DNA of 64,000 bases from assembly GCA_963823335.1 (NCBI GenBank), contig CAWGLD010000001.1, positions 224,001 through 288,000 on the forward strand, read 5' to 3'. Of this stretch, positions 41,406 to 49,248 are shown in pieces. Below the pieces are notes generated by a model. The model was not told the origin of the DNA. It saw only the letters and a list, made by a program, of their open reading frames with translations, and searched no databases. Position 1 is the first letter of the stretch. Each line of letters starts with the position of its first letter. The stretch comes from an uncultured delta proteobacterium. Its GTDB lineage: Bacteria > Desulfobacterota > Desulfobacteria > Desulfobacterales > B30-G6. The translations under genes and the position numbers were made by a program.

Positions 41406-42308
41406 TTACATCAGTTCAGTACAGTCACAATCCACATCGAACTTTTTGAGAAACCCGACCGGGTTGTAAGACAACTTGGCCTTTCGCAGTCCCTCACTGC
41501 CCAGATCCTGCTCCCGATTTACCATGGCAAACCCCTGACCTGCCTTTTCGAGAAACATCTGATTGATGGCCTGATATATCCCCTTGAAATCATGATTCCC
41601 TTTTTCAAAATGGATTACCAGTGTGTCTGCAGAAAGCTTTTCGGCTACCGTATACCCCGCCATATCCGTTTCAACCATGATGGCACCGCCCATCAGACGA
41701 GGGAACTTCCCCCAGTTGTTGAGCACTTTTGAAATGGCCTGGTTTTCCGAATTAAGAGCTGCCTGGGATGCACAATCCCTCCAGGTACACCAGTTTTCCT
41801 GCATCTGGACGGTCTGATGAATATTGTCTGCACTCAGGGGTAGGTATTGACAGTCGTATCTCTTGCTGAATTGATTCAAGAGGTTCTTTTTCTTGTGAAA
41901 CTTATTGCCCTTCAGTTCAACAAGCTCCCTTACCGAATACAGGTAGTCCCAGTGCTCCCTGGATGGCTGTGCTTCGCAATGCAGGTCGGGGGTCTGCTGC
42001 CATATTTGCAGCAATGCTTCCGGCACACGGGCGAAGGACACTGCACCACTGAAATGAAGCTGTAGTGTTTTCACCCAGTCCATACCCTTCCAATCACCCA
42101 CAGGTGCCCAGTATCTTTCAACGGGACGCGACTGCCGAATCCATATCAGCTCAGGTGTCCAGGCCCACTCAAGTCCATACACATCCGCCCATCCCCACAG
42201 GTTGAGAAAACTGTAATCCGATGCTTGTTCCGAACAAAGATCCAGAAATTGGAAATATTCCGACTGTCTCTCGATCTGGATGGGTTCAAAGTGGAGTGAC
42301 ATGCTCAC
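41406..42308 (-). CDS. DUF2156 / lysylphosphatidylglycerol synthase C-terminal-like GNAT protein
   Basis: SDYSFLNLWGW, DYLY..L.GNKF.KKKN, HFEK, NREQDLG.EGLRKAK.SY. Confidence 0.85.
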   Translation of the reverse strand: MSMSLHFEPIQIERQSEYFQFLDLCSEQASDYSFLNLWGWADVYGLEWAWTPELIWIRQSRPVERYWAPVGDWKGMDWVKTLQLHFSGAVSFARVPEALLQIWQQTPDLHCEAQPSREHWDYLYSVRELVELKGNKFHKKKNLLNQFSKRYDCQYLPLSADNIHQTVQMQENWCTWRDCASQAALNSENQAISKVLNNWGKFPRLMGGAIMVETDMAGYTVAEKLSADTLVIHFEKGNHDFKGIYQAINQMFLEKAGQGFAMVNREQDLGSEGLRKAKLSYNPVGFLKKFDVDCDCTELM

Positions 42309-42760
42309 CAGACCTCCGGAAAGCCGATATCGACAAAGGCGTTTTCCATCCTGCGCTTGTGGCCCTTTTCCATGGCTGCCAGGTCCAGAAAGATCTTCTT
42401 TTTGTCAGGTTCCGGACATGCCTCGGCCAAGGCCGTGTACTGAATCACGGCCGCTTCTTCCTTTTTCATGGCCAAGGCGATGGCATCGGCCGGCGTCATG
42501 TCCGTGGTAAGCTCCGGTAAATCCACATCCTCGGCAACATGATAATCCTGCCCCTCAGAAAAATAATCCCCCATACGATTGCTGATGTAAACCTGCTTCA
42601 AGATCTCCCGGTGCCGCTTTTCCTCTTCCGCAAAGTCGGCAAACATTTCCTTTAATTGTGTGTTTTCGACCTTTTGGGCGGCTTCTTCATAAAATTTCTG
42701 GGCCTCAACCTCATTTTCCATTGCAAATTTGATGATATTTTTGTACTCACTTAAAATCAT
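42305..42760 (-). CDS. Rubrerythrin/ferritin-like protein
   Basis: E.EA..FY, EEKRH, KEE.A..Y, MEKGH. Confidence 0.85.
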   Translation of the reverse strand: MILSEYKNIIKFAMENEVEAQKFYEEAAQKVENTQLKEMFADFAEEEKRHREILKQVYISNRMGDYFSEGQDYHVAEDVDLPELTTDMTPADAIALAMKKEEAAVIQYTALAEACPEPDKKKIFLDLAAMEKGHKRRMENAFVDIGFPEVW

Positions 42761-42886
42761 ATCAGACCCCTTTCACGGTTACGGTTTTGACATCAAAAAA
42801 AGATACCCATGACAGATTCTAAAGGATAGTATATTAGTGTGGTTATTGCAAATATTATGCCGCCAATTAAATAATAGGAGGATATC

Positions 42887-43717
42887 ATGCGTTGGAGACA
42901 GTTTTTTACACCGGTAACATCCATTTCTGCATCCAAAGCCAAAAACATCATGGCCGAGGGGAATCCAGAGACCTTCAACCTCGTGGATGTCCGTCAGCCA
43001 AGTGAATATGAAGCCCATCATATTCCAGGTGCCAAACTCATCCCCATTGCCGAACTTGACAAAAGGCTGCATGAACTGGACCCTGCCAAACCGACACTGG
43101 TCTATTGAGCGGTGGGCGGACGAAGCCGTGTGGCTTCGCAGATGCTTTCAGGAAAAGGATTCGAAAACGTCATGAACATGGCAGGGGGTATCAGGGCATG
43201 GGACGACCCGATGGCAATGGGTTCCGAAGAGCAGGGCCTGGCACTCTTCGACGGTACGGAATCACCCGAAGATACCCTCCGGATCGCCTATTCCCTTGAA
43301 GCGGGATTACGCGATTTTTACCTCTCCATGACCCAAAAGGTGCCGACCATGACGGTTCGGAATCTCTTCCGGAAACTGTCTGATATAGAAATAAAGCACC
43401 AGGACCGGTTATTTGATGAATATCTGCGGATGTCCGGAAAAACCATCGACAGGGAGTCCTTTGACAAACAAACGACAGCTTCCGCCGTCGAGGGGGGACT
43501 CACCACGGAAGAATACATCGCCATGTTCAAACCGGACCTGGAATCTCCGGGGGATGTGGTATCGCTGGCCATGTCCATCGAGGCCCAGGCCCTGGACCTG
43601 TATACACGCGCATCCCAAAGGGGAGGAGACCAGGGCAGCAAAGCGGTTTTGCAAAAAATCGCCCAGGAGGAGAGAACCCATCTCGAGCAGCTGGGGCAGC
43701 TGTTCAATGATCTTTAG
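42887..43717 (+). CDS. Probable selenoprotein: rhodanese domain (Sec active site, UGA 43106-43108) fused to a ferritin/rubrerythrin-like domain, 276 aa
   Basis: ORFs 42887-43108 and 43112-43717 share one frame. DVRQPSEY..HIPGA, then LVY-TGA-AVGGRS puts the TGA at the rhodanese catalytic Cys position. Hairpin follows. Confidence 0.88.
43121..43138 (+). promoter_or_regulatory. Candidate bacterial SECIS hairpin
   Basis: CGAAGCC-GTGT-GGCTTCG, perfect 7-bp stem with a G-first loop starting 20 nt after the UGA. Confidence 0.75.
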
Positions 43718-43846
43718 CGCGAACCTGGCATAAGAGAAGTTTTCATCAGCTGAACAGGCACACTGCAGGGGGATTGGGGAAGATACCTCGAAGAAGCCGA
43801 ATATCGATTATCCAACAAGAAACCGCACAAGCATGGAGACCTTGAA

Positions 43847-44962
43847 ATGACCAAACATCTCGTTCTCGTTGGTGGCGGACATGCCCATATGATGACCCTG
43901 GCAAATCTTCACACTTTTGTAGAGAAAGGGTATCGGGTAACCGTGGTGGGCCCCTCGGCTTACCACTACTATTCCGGTATGGGACCCGGCATGCTGGGAA
44001 AAACCTACACTGCGGACGATATCCGGTTCGCTACCCGTCAGGTGGTGGAAAAACAGGGAGGTACTTTTCTGCTTGGGAAAGCCACCAGCGTGGACCCCCT
44101 CGCAAAGACCCTCTTGCTCGAATCCGGTGATCACATCCCTTATGATGTCATCTCGTTCAATGCCGGCAGCTATGTTCCCCTGTTGAACCTTTCTGAAGTG
44201 CCGGACCATATCTACTCGGCCAAACCCATCGAACGACTGCTGGAGGCGCAGACACGGATCCTTGGGTTGTGTTCTCAAAAAGAAATCACCATCGGTATCG
44301 TCGGCGGCGGTCCCTCCTCGGCCGAAATCGCAGGCAATCTCTGGCAGTTGACCCAGAACAACAGAAGCTATGCGCCCGAAATCAAGATTTTTGCAGGCCG
44401 GCGATTCATGTCAAGGTTTCCCCAAAGGGTACGAACCAAGATCGAGAGATCTCTCACGCGACGTGGCATCCGCATCCTGTCCGGCAGTTATGTCGAAACA
44501 ATCGAATCCAAAACAGTTGTTCTGGCATCGGGTGAACACCACGACCTCGATGTTATTTTTCTGGCCCTGGGGGTCAGACCAAACCGTCTGTTCAAAAGAT
44601 CCGGATTGCCCACCGGTCCCGACGGAGGGCTCCTGGTAAATGCGCATCTTCAGTGTAGCGCCCATCCAGACATTTTCGGTGGAGGCGATTGTATCTATTT
44701 TGAACCCCGACCCCTGGATAAGGTCGGTGTCTATGCAGTCCGTGAAAATCCAGTTCTCTATGCCAATCTCATGGCGGCGCTGGAGGGTGAACCGCTACAA
44801 TCCTTTGATCCGGGTGGCGATTATCTCCTGATCTTCAACCTGGGGGGTGGTAAGGGGGTCCTGCAGAAAAGATGGCTTGTGCTGGACGGAAAACTGGCTT
44901 TTTTCATCAAGGATGCCATCGACCGGAAGTTCATGAAAAAATTTCAGGTCATCGAAAGATAA
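43847..44962 (+). CDS. FAD-dependent pyridine nucleotide-disulfide oxidoreductase (type found N-terminal to SelD)
   Basis: LVLVGGGHAH, YSGMGPG, GGD, KVGVYAVR, KDAIDRKFM. Confidence 0.8.
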   Translation: MTKHLVLVGGGHAHMMTLANLHTFVEKGYRVTVVGPSAYHYYSGMGPGMLGKTYTADDIRFATRQVVEKQGGTFLLGKATSVDPLAKTLLLESGDHIPYDVISFNAGSYVPLLNLSEVPDHIYSAKPIERLLEAQTRILGLCSQKEITIGIVGGGPSSAEIAGNLWQLTQNNRSYAPEIKIFAGRRFMSRFPQRVRTKIERSLTRRGIRILSGSYVETIESKTVVLASGEHHDLDVIFLALGVRPNRLFKRSGLPTGPDGGLLVNAHLQCSAHPDIFGGGDCIYFEPRPLDKVGVYAVRENPVLYANLMAALEGEPLQSFDPGGDYLLIFNLGGGKGVLQKRWLVLDGKLAFFIKDAIDRKFMKKFQVIER

Positions 44963-44977
44963 ATTTGCGATGCAACT

Positions 44978-46513
44978 TTATCTTTTAATATTTCCCACTG
45001 CCACCAGATATAACAGATAACTATCGCTATTGAGGGACAACAGTTCTCTGGCTTCATTGTCATAAAAGGCCCCGATGCCGCAGCAACCCAAACCCAGGGC
45101 CGTACTCCCCAGATACAACCGCTGACCGAGTTTGCCGGCCTCCATCATGGCGTAGCGGTAGCCCCTGGCCCCACAACTCTCATCCAGCGCCTTCAGGTTT
45201 GCCACAAACAGAAACAGGGCGCCTGCGTTGGCAATCCATCGTTGATCCAGGCAGATACCGGTCATTTTTTCGATAAAAAGCCCCGGTTTCAGCAGTCCAT
45301 AGGCCCTTTCAAGATCTGCAAGCTGATAATAGCCCGCATCGAACCCTTCCACTTGACCCAATAAAAACCCTGTCGTAACGGGCCTTGCACAGGTTTCCGC
45401 CTTTCCACCGGGACCTGCCGCCATACTCAGCAGAGATAGCAGCCGCATAACAGACATAGCCGGTATGGGTTGCCTTACAAAGTTTCTTCTGGAGCGCCGC
45501 CCCTGGACAACATCGACATAGCCAGTCCCATGGTTTTTCACCTCCGGCTGCCGGACAGGAAACCACTCGGTAGGTTCAGGCAGGGTGATCGCCGACATTT
45601 CGCTGCCTAAGTTCCGGTGTTTGCCTGGTTCGGAGCTTGCAATATACATCTGTTGCATGGCTTCAAATGAGACTTCACGGGAAGATACGCGACTGGCACC
45701 GATCATCTCTGCATCCAGTGCCATGGGTCGGAGGGGAGAAGATCCTCGCTCAATACCATGCCGTCTCTCCTCCAGATGGACATCCACAATGGCAAAACAA
45801 GCCTCTTTGTGTCTGTCCAACCCCACCAGCGAACACAGACGCTCATCCTCAAAATCATAGCGTACCGAACAGGATAACCCTGCAAATGTCAGCGTTGACA
45901 TCAGATTTTCAACCAGATGCCCGGTATCGAGCAGCACATATCGAAATGCCCTTTTGCGGTATTTCCATGAACTTCGAAAAAAAATGCCACTCAGAATAAA
46001 TGAGACCCATTTTTTTTCAGATTTCGGGATGGTGAGCGCTTCGGCGATATGCGCCGATGCATCTTCTCCACGCAGCTGCTGGAGGAAAAACCCCTGGATA
46101 TCATAGTGGAACAAACCCTTGGGCAAACCTGGAATACCTTGCCCTGACACATAGATTTCAACGGGGTACAGGGCGCCGGCCGATGGGACGCTGCGGTACA
46201 GATATTCCTGACCGCCCGCCCGTTGACGGGCCGTGTAGCCGTATGACAGACCCAGAACTGCTGCCACGGACTGAACATCCATGGTCCCACTGCCGCAAGT
46301 GTTTTCCGTGTCTTGCATGACCTGCCAGAAGGGTTTTGCCGTCCAGCCGATCTTTGGTTCAAGCACAATCTTTGGAAGCAGCGGATACGATTTGGTCTGA
46401 CGCGGGACATTTGGCCAGTCCATGGTATGGCGGGGCATGTGTAAGCGGTCATAGCCGGTAGCATCGTGATATTCCCGACCGCCAAGAATGAGCGTGTTAT
46501 CTTTATCGTTCAT
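44978..46513 (-). CDS. SagB/ThcOx-family double nitroreductase-domain protein
   Basis: RSVPSAGALYP, RSSWKY..RAFRY..LDTGH, RRSRRNF, GCCGIGAF.D. Confidence 0.85.
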   Translation of the reverse strand: MNDKDNTLILGGREYHDATGYDRLHMPRHTMDWPNVPRQTKSYPLLPKIVLEPKIGWTAKPFWQVMQDTENTCGSGTMDVQSVAAVLGLSYGYTARQRAGGQEYLYRSVPSAGALYPVEIYVSGQGIPGLPKGLFHYDIQGFFLQQLRGEDASAHIAEALTIPKSEKKWVSFILSGIFFRSSWKYRKRAFRYVLLDTGHLVENLMSTLTFAGLSCSVRYDFEDERLCSLVGLDRHKEACFAIVDVHLEERRHGIERGSSPLRPMALDAEMIGASRVSSREVSFEAMQQMYIASSEPGKHRNLGSEMSAITLPEPTEWFPVRQPEVKNHGTGYVDVVQGRRSRRNFVRQPIPAMSVMRLLSLLSMAAGPGGKAETCARPVTTGFLLGQVEGFDAGYYQLADLERAYGLLKPGLFIEKMTGICLDQRWIANAGALFLFVANLKALDESCGARGYRYAMMEAGKLGQRLYLGSTALGLGCCGIGAFYDNEARELLSLNSDSYLLYLVAVGNIKR

Positions 46514-47428: not shown

Positions 47429-47878
47429 TTACAACATGCTCCGTAATTGCCGTTCGATCTCGGGTTTGGCGTAGGTCCCGGCCAGGGTATGCAGAACCCG
47501 GCCGTTTTTAAAAAAGAGCAGCGTCGGCACACTCAGCACATGGTACCGGGCCGCCGTCATGGGGTTTTGATCGATATTGAGTTTGGCCACCTTGACATGC
47601 CCGGAAAATTCCCTGGCGAGTTGATCAATTATCGGCGCAATCATTCGACAGGGCCCGCACCATGCCGCCCAGCAGTCCAGAAGCACCACCCCCGGATATG
47701 CCAGAACGTCTTCCTGAAACGACCGGTCCGTCACCATCACCGGGTGTTGAATCGCTGAAGGCGGCGGCAGTTTACTGCGGCACTTCCCGCACACAGGCCC
47801 ATCTTTCACACGACTTTTGGGTATGCGATTCCTGGTTTTACAATTGGTACACTGAATGATGTAACTGTCGGTATCCAT
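47429..47878 (-). CDS. trxC: Thioredoxin 2 (zinc-finger thioredoxin)
   Basis: CTNC..NR..CGKC zinc finger plus WCGPC. Confidence 0.9.
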   Translation of the reverse strand: MDTDSYIIQCTNCKTRNRIPKSRVKDGPVCGKCRSKLPPPSAIQHPVMVTDRSFQEDVLAYPGVVLLDCWAAWCGPCRMIAPIIDQLAREFSGHVKVAKLNIDQNPMTAARYHVLSVPTLLFFKNGRVLHTLAGTYAKPEIERQLRSML

Positions 47879-47883
47879 TGGCC

Positions 47884-49248
47884 TCACCTGATAAGTTTGT
47901 CCAGTTCCTCTTGGGTCAGAAGACCCTCTTCCAGTACCACGTCCGCGATACGCTTCCCCGAGGCGTGGGCCTTTTTTGAAATAGCTGCAGATGCGTCATA
48001 CCCCAGCTGCGGGACCAGATAGGTTGCCAGGGCCAGGCTCTTGTCGACATAAAACGTGCACTTTTCCATATCGGCTCTGACCCCCTGGATGCACTTTTCC
48101 GCAAAAGAACGGGCGCCGATGGAAAGCAGCGCTATGGATTGCAGCAGATTGTAAGCAATGACGGGCATCATGACGTTCAATTCGAAACTGCCGCTCTGAC
48201 CCGCCAGGGTGATGGTGAGATCGTTTCCCATCACCTGGGCTGCAATCTGCAGAACCGATTCCGGGATGACGGGATTCACTTTGCCCGGCATGATCGAGGA
48301 CCCTGGCTGTAGCGACGGGATTTTTATTTCAGCGAGACCACAGCGCGGACCAGATGCAAGCCACCTGATATCATTCGCAATTTTTGTCAGACTAACTGCC
48401 GTGGTCTTTAATGCGCCGCTCATCTCCACGGCTGCATCCTTGGCACTCTGGGCCTCGAAATGATGCACAGCCTCCGAAAAATCAGTTTTCAAGTGGGCCG
48501 ACAGCATCTGAATCACACGATCTGCAAACTGCGGGTGTGTATTCAATCCGTTACCGACGGCTGTCCCGCCCAGAGGAAGTTCCCTGAGATTTTCAGAGGC
48601 ATTTTCAATCCGTTTGATGGAAAGGGTAACCTGCCGGGCGTACCCGCCGAATTCATCCCCCAGATAAATGGGCACGGCATCCTGAAGATGCGTCCTGCCG
48701 ATCTTCCGGATGGAAGCAAATTCAGTTGCTTTTTTCATCAAAGCTGTCTGGAGTGTTTCCAGGGCCGGAATCAATTCCCTCTGTATGGCCGTCAACCCGG
48801 CCACATGGATGACACTGGGTATGATATCGTTGCTGGACTGCCCGAGATTCACATGGTCGTTTGGATGCACCGGGGATTTGCCGTCTTTTTTGCCCGTAAG
48901 CAGTTCATTGGCCCTGCATGCGATCACTTCGTTCATATTCATGTTCGTGGATGTGCCCGATCCTGTCTGAAAAAGGTCCACCACAAAGGCATGGTCGAAT
49001 TTGCCGTCAATCACTTCGAGAGCGGCGGTCATGATGGCTTTTGCCGGCGCTGGATCCAAGAGTTGCAGCTCGGCATTGACGGCTGCCGCCATCTGTTTGA
49101 TGATGGCAAGAGACCGGATAAAAGCGCCCGGCAACTTGAGCCCGCTGTCCATGAAATTTTGTCGGGCCCGTTCTGTTTGAGCACCATAGTAGGCATTTTC
49201 GGGGAGCTCTACGCTGCCCAGGGAATCTTTTTCCAGTCTTGTTTTCAT
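47884..49248 (-). CDS. fumC: Class II fumarate hydratase (or aspartase)
   Basis: QTGSGTSTNMN, GRTHLQDA, GSSIMPGKVNP. Confidence 0.88.
   Translation of the reverse strand: MKTRLEKDSLGSVELPENAYYGAQTERARQNFMDSGLKLPGAFIRSLAIIKQMAAAVNAELQLLDPAPAKAIMTAALEVIDGKFDHAFVVDLFQTGSGTSTNMNMNEVIACRANELLTGKKDGKSPVHPNDHVNLGQSSNDIIPSVIHVAGLTAIQRELIPALETLQTALMKKATEFASIRKIGRTHLQDAVPIYLGDEFGGYARQVTLSIKRIENASENLRELPLGGTAVGNGLNTHPQFADRVIQMLSAHLKTDFSEAVHHFEAQSAKDAAVEMSGALKTTAVSLTKIANDIRWLASGPRCGLAEIKIPSLQPGSSIMPGKVNPVIPESVLQIAAQVMGNDLTITLAGQSGSFELNVMMPVIAYNLLQSIALLSIGARSFAEKCIQGVRADMEKCTFYVDKSLALATYLVPQLGYDASAAISKKAHASGKRIADVVLEEGLLTQEELDKLIR

Follow-up and report, generated by a model that had tools for sequence, protein, structure and literature searches.

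Analysis of a 64,000-nucleotide stretch of DNA from an uncultured delta proteobacterium of the Desulfobacterales (GenBank assembly GCA_963823335.1, contig CAWGLD010000001.1, positions 224,001 to 288,000; hereafter the window) revealed a gene whose reading frame continues through a UGA codon. With a probability that we put at about 0.95, positions 42887-43717 form a single gene in which a hairpin at 43121-43138 directs SelB to decode the UGA at 43106-43108 as selenocysteine (Sec), giving a two-domain product of 276 residues. This product would carry Sec at the catalytic position of an N-terminal rhodanese domain, which is fused to a ferritin-like domain with a set of di-iron ligands. The fusion gene is normally followed by a gene for an NDH-2/AIF-like flavin adenine dinucleotide (FAD) enzyme, and it is a member of an extensive family of the Desulfobacterales that has undergone many interchanges of Sec and cysteine (Cys). 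The Sec-rhodanese of the window is part of an uncharacterised fusion and putative operon that is widespread and systematically mis-annotated.

A UGA codon at the catalytic position of a rhodanese domain

The open reading frames 42887-43108 and 43112-43717 of the forward strand lie in the same frame and are broken solely by the TGA at 43106-43108. The initial annotation of this DNA had regarded them as one frame interrupted by this codon alone, and translation of the TGA as Sec (U) indeed gave a continuous product of 276 residues with U74 within the sequence TLVY-U-AVGGRS. The same translation confirmed the claim that the protein has no Cys besides residue 74, and all four motifs named at that time were found, namely EAGLRDFY (residues 138-145), IEIKH (167-171), EAQALDLY (232-239) and EERTH (261-265). 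The sequence AGGAG ahead of the start codon is kept across the aligned upstream regions of related loci. Public gene collections record the gene of the window as two proteins of 73 and 181 amino acids.

As TGA ends 14 of the 31 long non-overlapping frames of the window, it is an ordinary stop codon here and not a sense codon. The host genome (11 contigs, 93.9% complete) contains the Sec machinery that the initial annotation had named as a check: selA (610 bits), selB (373 bits), selD (372 bits) and tRNA-Sec (75 bits) were all detected above their cut-offs, and selA is located about 3 kb to the left of the window. The selD gene of this genome (C5:144246-145172) itself has one in-frame TGA, which would make SelD a selenoprotein as well; one TGA was also present in every selD match listed for the class-wide sample described below.

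Contigs of four other public sequencing runs were aligned to positions 42700-45000 of the window. The codon is covered by DNA contig X2 (42919-43995), by RNA-library contig X9 (43004-43369) and by two X3 contigs, which differ from the window at the synonymous positions 43105, 43111, 43117 and 43120; no difference is listed at 43106-43108. The TGA is unchanged in the DNA and RNA-library contigs of other studies, and a sequencing error, considered in the initial annotation, was not borne out. Stretches without cover in single runs, such as 43085-43392 in X11, carry no meaning. One X3 DNA contig of a relative joins position 43256 to 43539 and skips 282 nucleotides (nt; 94 codons, in frame), so that the ferritin-like domain would lose its first pair of helices. 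This single contig was aligned with the likeness threshold set at 90%, differs at 29 of 302 aligned bases and may be an assembly artefact.

A protein search yielded 2377 relatives (E <= 0.001), of which the best 120 were considered. Most of these comprise 274-298 amino acids and both domains; the Cys-type homologues share 58-68% identity with the query over 99-100% of its length. The seven closest relatives (85-99% identity) are gene calls of 181-195 amino acids that start just past the TGA. In an alignment of 25 of the listed relatives, the column of U74 contains Cys in 17 of 17 full-length homologues, in line with the Cys or TGA anticipated at this position.

The codon itself was followed at the DNA level in a survey in which each species was represented by one genome. 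It gave 420 relatives, of which the best 80 loci were kept. A strict active-site pattern missed 14 loci, and a relaxed pattern located the codon in 79 of the 80, one locus (L068) being left out of the counts. TGA was found at 40 of these 79 loci, TGC at 25 and TGT at 14, the window providing the 41st TGA. For the class-wide survey, 201 genomes of the class were sampled evenly, and 99 of them had a match. Among the 62 matches within orthologue range (E <= 7e-92), exactly one in-frame TGA was present in 40 and none in 22, and the Sec form of the rhodanese-di-iron family is therefore commoner than the Cys form in this sample.

A maximum-likelihood tree was calculated from 79 proteins with the Sec/Cys site masked, L068 and L026 (209 residues extracted) having been dropped. 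Parsimony placed 13 Sec/Cys changes on this tree, and at least seven are forced by well-supported branches. The protein of the window falls within an all-Sec clade of eight (Shimodaira-Hasegawa-like approximate likelihood ratio test, 99). One cultured bacterium, Desulfosarcina widdelii (L030), carries the Cys form, and one locus (L091) originates from a metagenome-assembled genome of a cable bacterium (Electrothrix).

The class-wide sample also contained a second group of more distant relatives of about 275-290 amino acids (E 1e-31 to 1e-48) with both domains and with an in-frame TGA in none. They were often found in genomes without the orthologue, and the group looks like a Cys-only paralogous family.

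A stem-loop maintained in the TGA forms

The initial annotation had described a perfect hairpin 3' of the TGA with its loop 20 nt downstream. The perfect stem was found as described; the loop lies 19 nt past the A of the UGA. The 24-nt core of this putative selenocysteine insertion sequence (SECIS) has a folding energy of -11.5 kcal/mol in the window. Taken alone, the hairpin is not significant: the 71-nt fold has a z value of -0.46, and 62 of 200 shuffled sequences fold as well. Nor is the whole 48-nt stretch stabler in the Sec forms (mean -17.7 kcal/mol) than in the Cys forms (-20.0 kcal/mol). Both results weigh against the Sec reading, the second one against a simple argument from stability.

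The stem falls within the stretch that encodes the conserved peptide RSRVA(A/S), and this stretch is partly self-complementary under any codon choice. As pairing is partly forced by this peptide, the informative test is the comparison of Sec forms with Cys forms. In the Sec forms, 80.0% of the cells of an 8-base-pair helix are paired (shuffles 72.8 +/- 1.2; 0 of 500 as high), whereas the value for the Cys forms is 61.5% (69 of 500 shuffles as high). The covariation score amounts to 0.142 for the Sec forms (shuffles 0.049; reached by 0 of 500) and to 0.048 for the Cys forms (reached by 92 of 500). When the 3' partner is slid along the sequence, the Sec set reaches at most 60.3% pairing, and the Cys set reaches 66% at -3, which is better than the structure itself.

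Single pairs revealed the same difference. Pair 18-31 is C-G in 17, A-U in 15 and unpaired in eight of the Sec forms; in the Cys forms it is mainly C-G (24), with one GU and 11 unpaired. Pair 16-33 is C-G in 21 and A-U in eight Sec forms, compared to seven C-G, two A-U and 27 unpaired among the Cys forms, and pair 19-30 is formed in 39 of 40 Sec forms vs six of 36 Cys forms. The Ala codon opposite AGC is GCT at 39 of 40 Sec loci vs six of 39 Cys loci, and the Arg codon of the loop, always CGU or CGG in Sec forms, is CGC in ten of 39 Cys forms. The mean energy of the 24-nt core is lower in Sec than in Cys forms (-10.7 vs -8.2 kcal/mol; Mann-Whitney p = 2.5e-4, kinship ignored).

Only in the TGA forms have synonymous and compensatory substitutions preserved the stem. 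Together with the placement of TGA exactly at the Cys column in 40 of 79 loci, this goes far beyond what chance would give. The stem pattern points to a SECIS-type stem-loop just 3' of the UGA that appears to be under selection. A search of the whole window with Rfam at gathering thresholds gave no match, which we do not count against a SECIS element. With at least seven independent Sec/Cys switches and a SECIS stem inside the codons of a conserved peptide, the family offers a clean natural data set, which can be used for studying the rise and decay of SECIS elements inside coding sequence.

Rhodanese and di-iron domains

The N-terminal domain is predicted to be a rhodanese of the sulfurtransferase type on the basis of its Pfam score, fold and active-site loop. 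In rhodaneses, the catalytic Cys begins a six-residue active-site loop. The family has the loop U/C-A-[VI]-G-G-R followed by Ser, with C74, G77, G78, R79 and S80 invariant in 75 aligned sequences, and position 74 is the sole Cys in 72 of these 75. In a Foldseek search, the N-terminal domain matched rhodaneses with E values down to 1.5e-6; both single-domain enzymes (root-mean-square deviation (rmsd) 1.3-1.6 Å) and the fused rhodaneses 3tp9, 5ve3, 3nta and 3icr (1.3-1.9 Å) were superimposed over about 96-101 columns.

The di-iron ligand set, for which paired E..FY/E..H motifs had first been noticed, proved to be complete. Its six ligands E138, E168, H171, E232, E262 and H265 follow the pattern E/ExxH/E/ExxH and are invariant in the 75 aligned members. 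The cross-over of the bundle contains a family-specific, invariant loop, EGGLTT (residues 202-207). A rubredoxin-like Fe(Cys)4 domain is absent, position 74 being the only one in the fusion protein that could be Cys. For the fusion protein, all NCBIfam models score below their cut-offs, which indicates that no dedicated curated family exists for it, and NF045767 (rubrerythrin) did not match it at E <= 0.01. The NCBIfam model PRK12775, a flavin-reductase polyprotein that ends in a ferritin domain, matches the di-iron domain as well as the protein of a divergent rubrerythrin-like gene upstream.

An AlphaFold2 model calculated from the 75-sequence alignment had a mean predicted local distance difference test (pLDDT) value of 80.7 and a predicted template modelling score (pTM) of 0.68. 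Comparison of its residues 122-276 by VIA-align retrieved ferritin-like bundles at Z values of 14-16.7 with none standing out, among them the ferritin-like domain of 3fse, Dps-like proteins, a mini-bacterioferritin, 2fzf, nigerythrin (1yux, 14.6) and symerythrin (3sid, 14.4). As such Z values reflect the fold class in helical bundles, the modelled C-terminal domain is assignable only to the general class of ferritin-like bundles.

A search for proteins in which the flavoprotein is fused to the other two domains yielded a single candidate, a rhodanese-ferritin-flavoprotein of 736 amino acids from one metagenome contig (P0122). The second half of its ferritin domain is frame-shifted and the flavoprotein follows, and it was treated as a frameshift artefact.

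The flavoprotein encoded downstream

At 65 of the 80 loci, a homologue of the flavoprotein gene directly follows the fusion gene in the same orientation, with gaps of about 10 to 250 nt, so that the co-occurrence looked for in the gene neighbourhoods was indeed found. Of the 15 loci that lack such a homologue, two (L091 and L095) end within about 130 nt of the fusion gene. When the neighbouring open reading frames were clustered, no other family occurred in more than 16 of the 80 loci, and the conserved unit is therefore the gene pair. RNA-library contigs of two studies, X9 (43561-44416) and X11 (43640-43964), span the stop of the fusion gene and the start of the flavoprotein gene; they show presence in these libraries and give a faint hint of co-transcription.

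The nearest curated family of the flavoprotein is TIGR03169 ('Nterm_to_SelD'), the best NCBIfam match, to which it aligns end to end (positions 2-365 of 365). The initial annotation had described the protein as an oxidoreductase of a SelD-associated type. The family likeness stands, but the score of 253.1 bits remains below the curated cut-off of 310, and the gene is stand-alone and neither fused nor adjacent to selD, which is located on contig C5, the pair being on contig C1. As selD is near-universal (193 of the 201 genomes of the class-wide sample), its co-occurrence with the pair is uninformative. A literature search on TIGR03169 found nothing.

Among solved proteins, the nearest by sequence are the NDH-2-like YjlD (3.5e-18, best PDB match), NDH-2 of Staphylococcus aureus (1e-12) and FSP1/AIFM2. 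Sulfide:quinone reductases (SQR) match only the first ca. 115 residues. Among 61 orthologues, C282, which follows the GGGD motif of the FAD site, is the sole invariant Cys (61 of 61); neither a Cys pair nor an N-terminal Cys was found in this set.

Proposed function of the gene pair

We tentatively propose that the pair serves an NAD(P)H-driven defence of the rubrerythrin type against peroxide or oxygen, in which the lone selenol takes part. NAD(P)H would reduce the flavoprotein, and the flavoprotein would keep the di-iron site ferrous, in place of the rubredoxin and its reductase that act in a true rubrerythrin. The di-iron site would then reduce H2O2 or O2. The selenol(ate) on the rhodanese loop would act as a nucleophile near the di-iron site; it could either meet the peroxide first, giving Se-OH, or carry sulfane sulfur arising when sulfidic cells meet oxygen, and it would be recycled by the same electron supply. 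The use of selenium would speed up this step at a single residue and make over-oxidation less likely.

The coupling of the di-iron centre to the selenol and its reduction by the flavoprotein are suggested by the gene order. The flavoprotein resembles the NDH-2 and AIF electron donors in sequence, and true rubrerythrins obtain their electrons via rubredoxin from flavoproteins of the same superfamily. We favour the di-iron site as the electron acceptor because of this precedent and because of the flavin-ferritin fusion PRK12775, whose matches indicate that nature fuses such reductases to this kind of domain. Peroxide or oxygen is favoured as the substrate because of the likeness to electron donors and because of neighbours related to oxidative stress, namely rubrerythrin-like, desulfoferrodoxin and peroxiredoxin genes. 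The proposal also agrees with the invariance of the six di-iron ligands, with the single Cys of 72 of the 75 aligned members and with the lack of a Cys pair in the flavoprotein. At one locus without the flavoprotein gene (L094), rubrerythrin and desulfoferrodoxin genes lie just upstream and a peroxiredoxin gene just downstream of the fusion gene.

Several points weigh against this proposal. The divergent rubrerythrin-like gene occurs in only 11 of the 80 loci, in the clade of the window and a few others, and the desulfoferrodoxin/peroxiredoxin set at L094 only. At three sister loci without the flavoprotein gene (L064, L071 and L075), a gene for a metallo-beta-lactamase fold ends about 30 nt upstream and suggests a chemistry of persulfides instead. 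Unlike rubredoxin, a lone thiol or selenol is unable to pass on electrons one at a time, so that precedent does not explain what a rhodanese domain would do in a peroxidase. What we take to be the seventh ligand of rubrerythrin, the second Glu of ExxE in helix C, is Ala235 here. As the inter-domain linker (residues 111-116) was modelled with pLDDT values below 50, the predicted arrangement of the domains is not reliable. The RNA-library contigs bear little on co-transcription, since they may hold DNA and a contig across two genes is no proof of one transcript.

The main alternative, possible but somewhat doubtful, is that the pair acts as a carrier and reductase of sulfane sulfur or selenium. 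Sec74 would bind S(0) or Se(0) in the form of Se-S(-) or Se-Se(-). The flavoprotein would then use NAD(P)H to set free H2S or H2Se; otherwise, oxygenation of the bound sulfur would take place at the di-iron site. Such a system would correspond to NADH-dependent persulfide reductase, or to the fusions of persulfide dioxygenase (PDO) and rhodanese, with its parts on separate chains, and it could supply selenide to SelD. It would explain the rhodanese domain well. The standard rhodanese-type loop agrees with such a role, and the closest relatives of the rhodanese domain by both sequence and fold are those of persulfide-enzyme fusions, i.e. Npsr (3nta/3ntd), CoADR-RHD (3icr), CoA-persulfide reductase (8a56), PDO-rhodanese (5ve3) and 3tp9. 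Sec proteins of sulfur trafficking (rhodanese, DsrE-like, MoeB) are also among the predicted selenoproteins in the table of a 2026 review (PMC13188914). The metallo-beta-lactamase neighbour fits as well, but as L064, L071 and L075 form one clade, it counts as one event. Similarly, the SelD-fused family is the nearest curated one of the flavoprotein, but its cut-off is not reached. The flavoprotein has neither the N-terminal catalytic Cys of Npsr and CoADR nor the Cys pair of SQR, its matches to SQR being confined to the stretch given above, and the invariant di-iron site would be left without a necessary role.

Rather more doubtful is that the two proteins form a redox enzyme of an undescribed kind, in which a dedicated NDH-2-like flavoprotein keeps a carboxylate-bridged di-iron site reduced and the lone rhodanese selenol acts directly on this site or beside it. 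An NAD(P)H-dependent oxygenase or reductase of selenium-bound sulfane sulfur would be one example, and an iron-plus-sulfur donor that mends oxygen-damaged Fe-S clusters of cells in sulfidic sediments another. If true, both Sec and the ferritin fold would be put to a new catalytic use in either case.

Repair or assembly of Fe-S clusters as the actual function is unlikely. Here, the ferritin-like site would give iron, the rhodanese persulfide sulfur and the flavoprotein electrons, in a manner akin to the di-iron protein RIC/YtfE. Judged by domain content, this would account for all three parts at once and would fit the oxidative-stress neighbours. Yet no scaffold, desulfurase or Fe-S carrier gene was found among the conserved neighbours, no homology to RIC or hemerythrin was seen in the Pfam, NCBIfam or VIA-align results, and the idea draws on analogy.

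It is very improbable that the gene does not encode a selenoprotein, with the TGA being a true stop (of a split or decaying gene, or between two small genes) or an error for TGC or TGT: although gene callers give two products and the hairpin alone is not significant, TGA stands exactly at the Cys codon in independent assemblies and is unchanged in contigs of other studies, both halves around it are conserved (58-89% identity), the 73-amino-acid product would break off halfway through the rhodanese fold, only TGA forms have preserved the stem and the genome has the full Sec machinery.

The rhodanese-di-iron protein and the flavoprotein are encoded by an unstudied unit of two genes that is widespread among sulfate reducers and strongly conserved. 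It probably has a part in the response of these anaerobes to oxygen, peroxide or reactive sulfur where oxic and sulfidic zones meet, and D. widdelii, as a cultured carrier of the Cys form, makes it accessible to testing.

Relation to known systems

Sec-rhodanese-like proteins are established computational predictions. Five forms, two of which have a UxxG motif, are contained in the table of the 2026 review (PMC13188914); a 2022 review (PMC9312934) lists 'COG0607 form 1' of Sec-rhodanese, and eight Sec-rhodanese genes were counted in the deltaproteobacterial symbionts of Olavius (PMC1976440). The fusion protein resembles the catalogued 'form 2, UxxG' in that it has a PF00581 domain with Sec at the position of the catalytic Cys, the motif being U-A-V-G here, and it shares with the catalogued proteins the occurrence in deltaproteobacterial sulfate reducers and the existence of Cys homologues. 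This likeness was judged by motif and domain, the representative sequence given in the catalogue being MBM9537886.1. Rubrerythrin or ferritin is never mentioned in the main texts of these three papers. The term 'hidden selenoprotein' of the initial annotation is apt for the public gene calls, in which the gene is split, but not for the kind of protein, as Sec-rhodaneses with UxxG are already catalogued.

A literature search, judged in part by titles and abstracts, found nothing on this fusion or on its pairing with the flavoprotein gene; in PMC3906813, the rhodanese and rubrerythrin genes are separate. The automatic names given by the Joint Genome Institute (JGI) to Cys forms are 'rhodanese-related sulfurtransferase/rubrerythrin'. 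Gene callers turn the Sec form into two products, a stub of the rhodanese and a fragment named 'rubrerythrin', so that for the Desulfobacterales both the counts of selenoproteins and the statistics on domain architecture are off. The correct reading of the fusion gene mends a systematic annotation error.

With the rubrerythrin- and erythrin-type proteins (PF02915; nigerythrin 1yux, symerythrin 3sid, 2fzf of Pyrococcus furiosus), the C-terminal domain shares the four-helix bundle with E/ExxH/E/ExxH ligands, a Tyr seven residues past the first Glu of each half, the occurrence in anaerobes and a Pfam score above the cut-off. Lacking a rubredoxin domain, the fusion protein is no true rubrerythrin; the Cys4 site and a match to NF045767 are absent, and the EGGLTT loop and the N-terminal rhodanese are additional.

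Npsr (3nta), CoADR-RHD (3icr) and PDO-rhodanese (5ve3) likewise couple a rhodanese residue to an iron or flavin partner, and their rhodanese domains are 31-36% identical to the one described here (rmsd 1.3-1.9 Å). In contrast to Npsr and CoADR-RHD, the flavoprotein of the window is encoded by a separate gene, is of the NDH-2/AIF type and has no catalytic residue of the Cys43 type, and the rhodanese residue is Sec; because of the separate chains and the missing catalytic Cys, the pair is not of the Npsr/CoADR-RHD type. PDO-rhodanese differs in its iron partner, which is a mononuclear metallo-beta-lactamase fold and not a di-iron bundle.

Neighbouring genes and further features

The features of the region are compiled in the table.

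Table. Features of the fusion gene and its surroundings, ordered by position in the window.
Feature	Positions	Strand	Remarks
LPG_synthase_C (DUF2156)-like gene	41406-42308	-	4-nt overlap with the rubrerythrin-like gene; 14/80 loci
Rubrerythrin-like gene, 151 amino acids	42305..42760	-	PF02915, 1.7e-18; no rubredoxin domain; divergent
Sigma-54-like -24/-12 element (GG-N10-GC, TTGCA)	42846..42864	-	faces the divergent rubrerythrin-like gene; conserved in aligned intergenic regions of loci with this gene
Shine-Dalgarno sequence AGGAGG	42876..42881	+	5 nt ahead of ATG 42887; read from the sequence
Predicted rhodanese(Sec74)-di-iron fusion gene	42887..43717	+	276 codons plus TAG stop; continuous frame if TGA = U
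Rhodanese domain	42929..43204	+	residues 15-106; PF00581, 71.1 bits vs cut-off 22.2, 1.1e-19
UGA codon, predicted Sec (U74)	43106..43108	+	catalytic Cys position of the rhodanese loop U-A-V-G-G-R-S
SECIS-like hairpin CGAAGCC-GUGU-GGCUUCG	43121..43138	+	perfect 7-base-pair stem, GUGU loop, 12-nt spacer after UGA
Ferritin/rubrerythrin-like four-helix bundle	43271..43699	+	residues 129-271; PF02915, 40.9 bits vs cut-off 22.8, 3.4e-10
FAD/NAD(P)H oxidoreductase gene, 371 amino acids, NDH-2/AIF/FSP1-like	43847..44962	+	PF07992 Pyr_redox_2, 1e-28
SagB-type dehydrogenase/nitroreductase gene, 511 amino acids	44978-46513	-	TIGR03605, 1.9e-41; convergent; ca. 11 loci, same lineage
Thioredoxin-2-type gene	47429-47887	-	zinc-ribbon N-terminus and WCGPC thioredoxin domain; ca. 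2.5 kb downstream of the pair

The rubrerythrin-like gene that the initial annotation had placed divergently upstream was recovered by its Pfam match. Together with the LPG_synthase_C-like gene it occurs in at least 11 loci, a pairing without obvious rationale. The conserved element between it and the fusion gene resembles what we take to be the sigma-54 promoter consensus. Its reverse complement, GGCAT-N5-TTGCA, is present in the window and at L022-L027 and L082, and displaced copies occur at L033, L043, L067 and L076. No cyclodehydratase gene was noticed near the SagB-type gene.

At two loci without the flavoprotein gene (L057 and L087), genes for MntP and ZIP metal transporters lie downstream of the fusion gene. 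At two further loci the frame is open upstream of the fusion gene, giving 527 amino acids at L097:3272-4852 and 594 amino acids up to the TGA at L063:2438-4219. The additional parts have no Pfam match and could represent longer forms or merely open frames.

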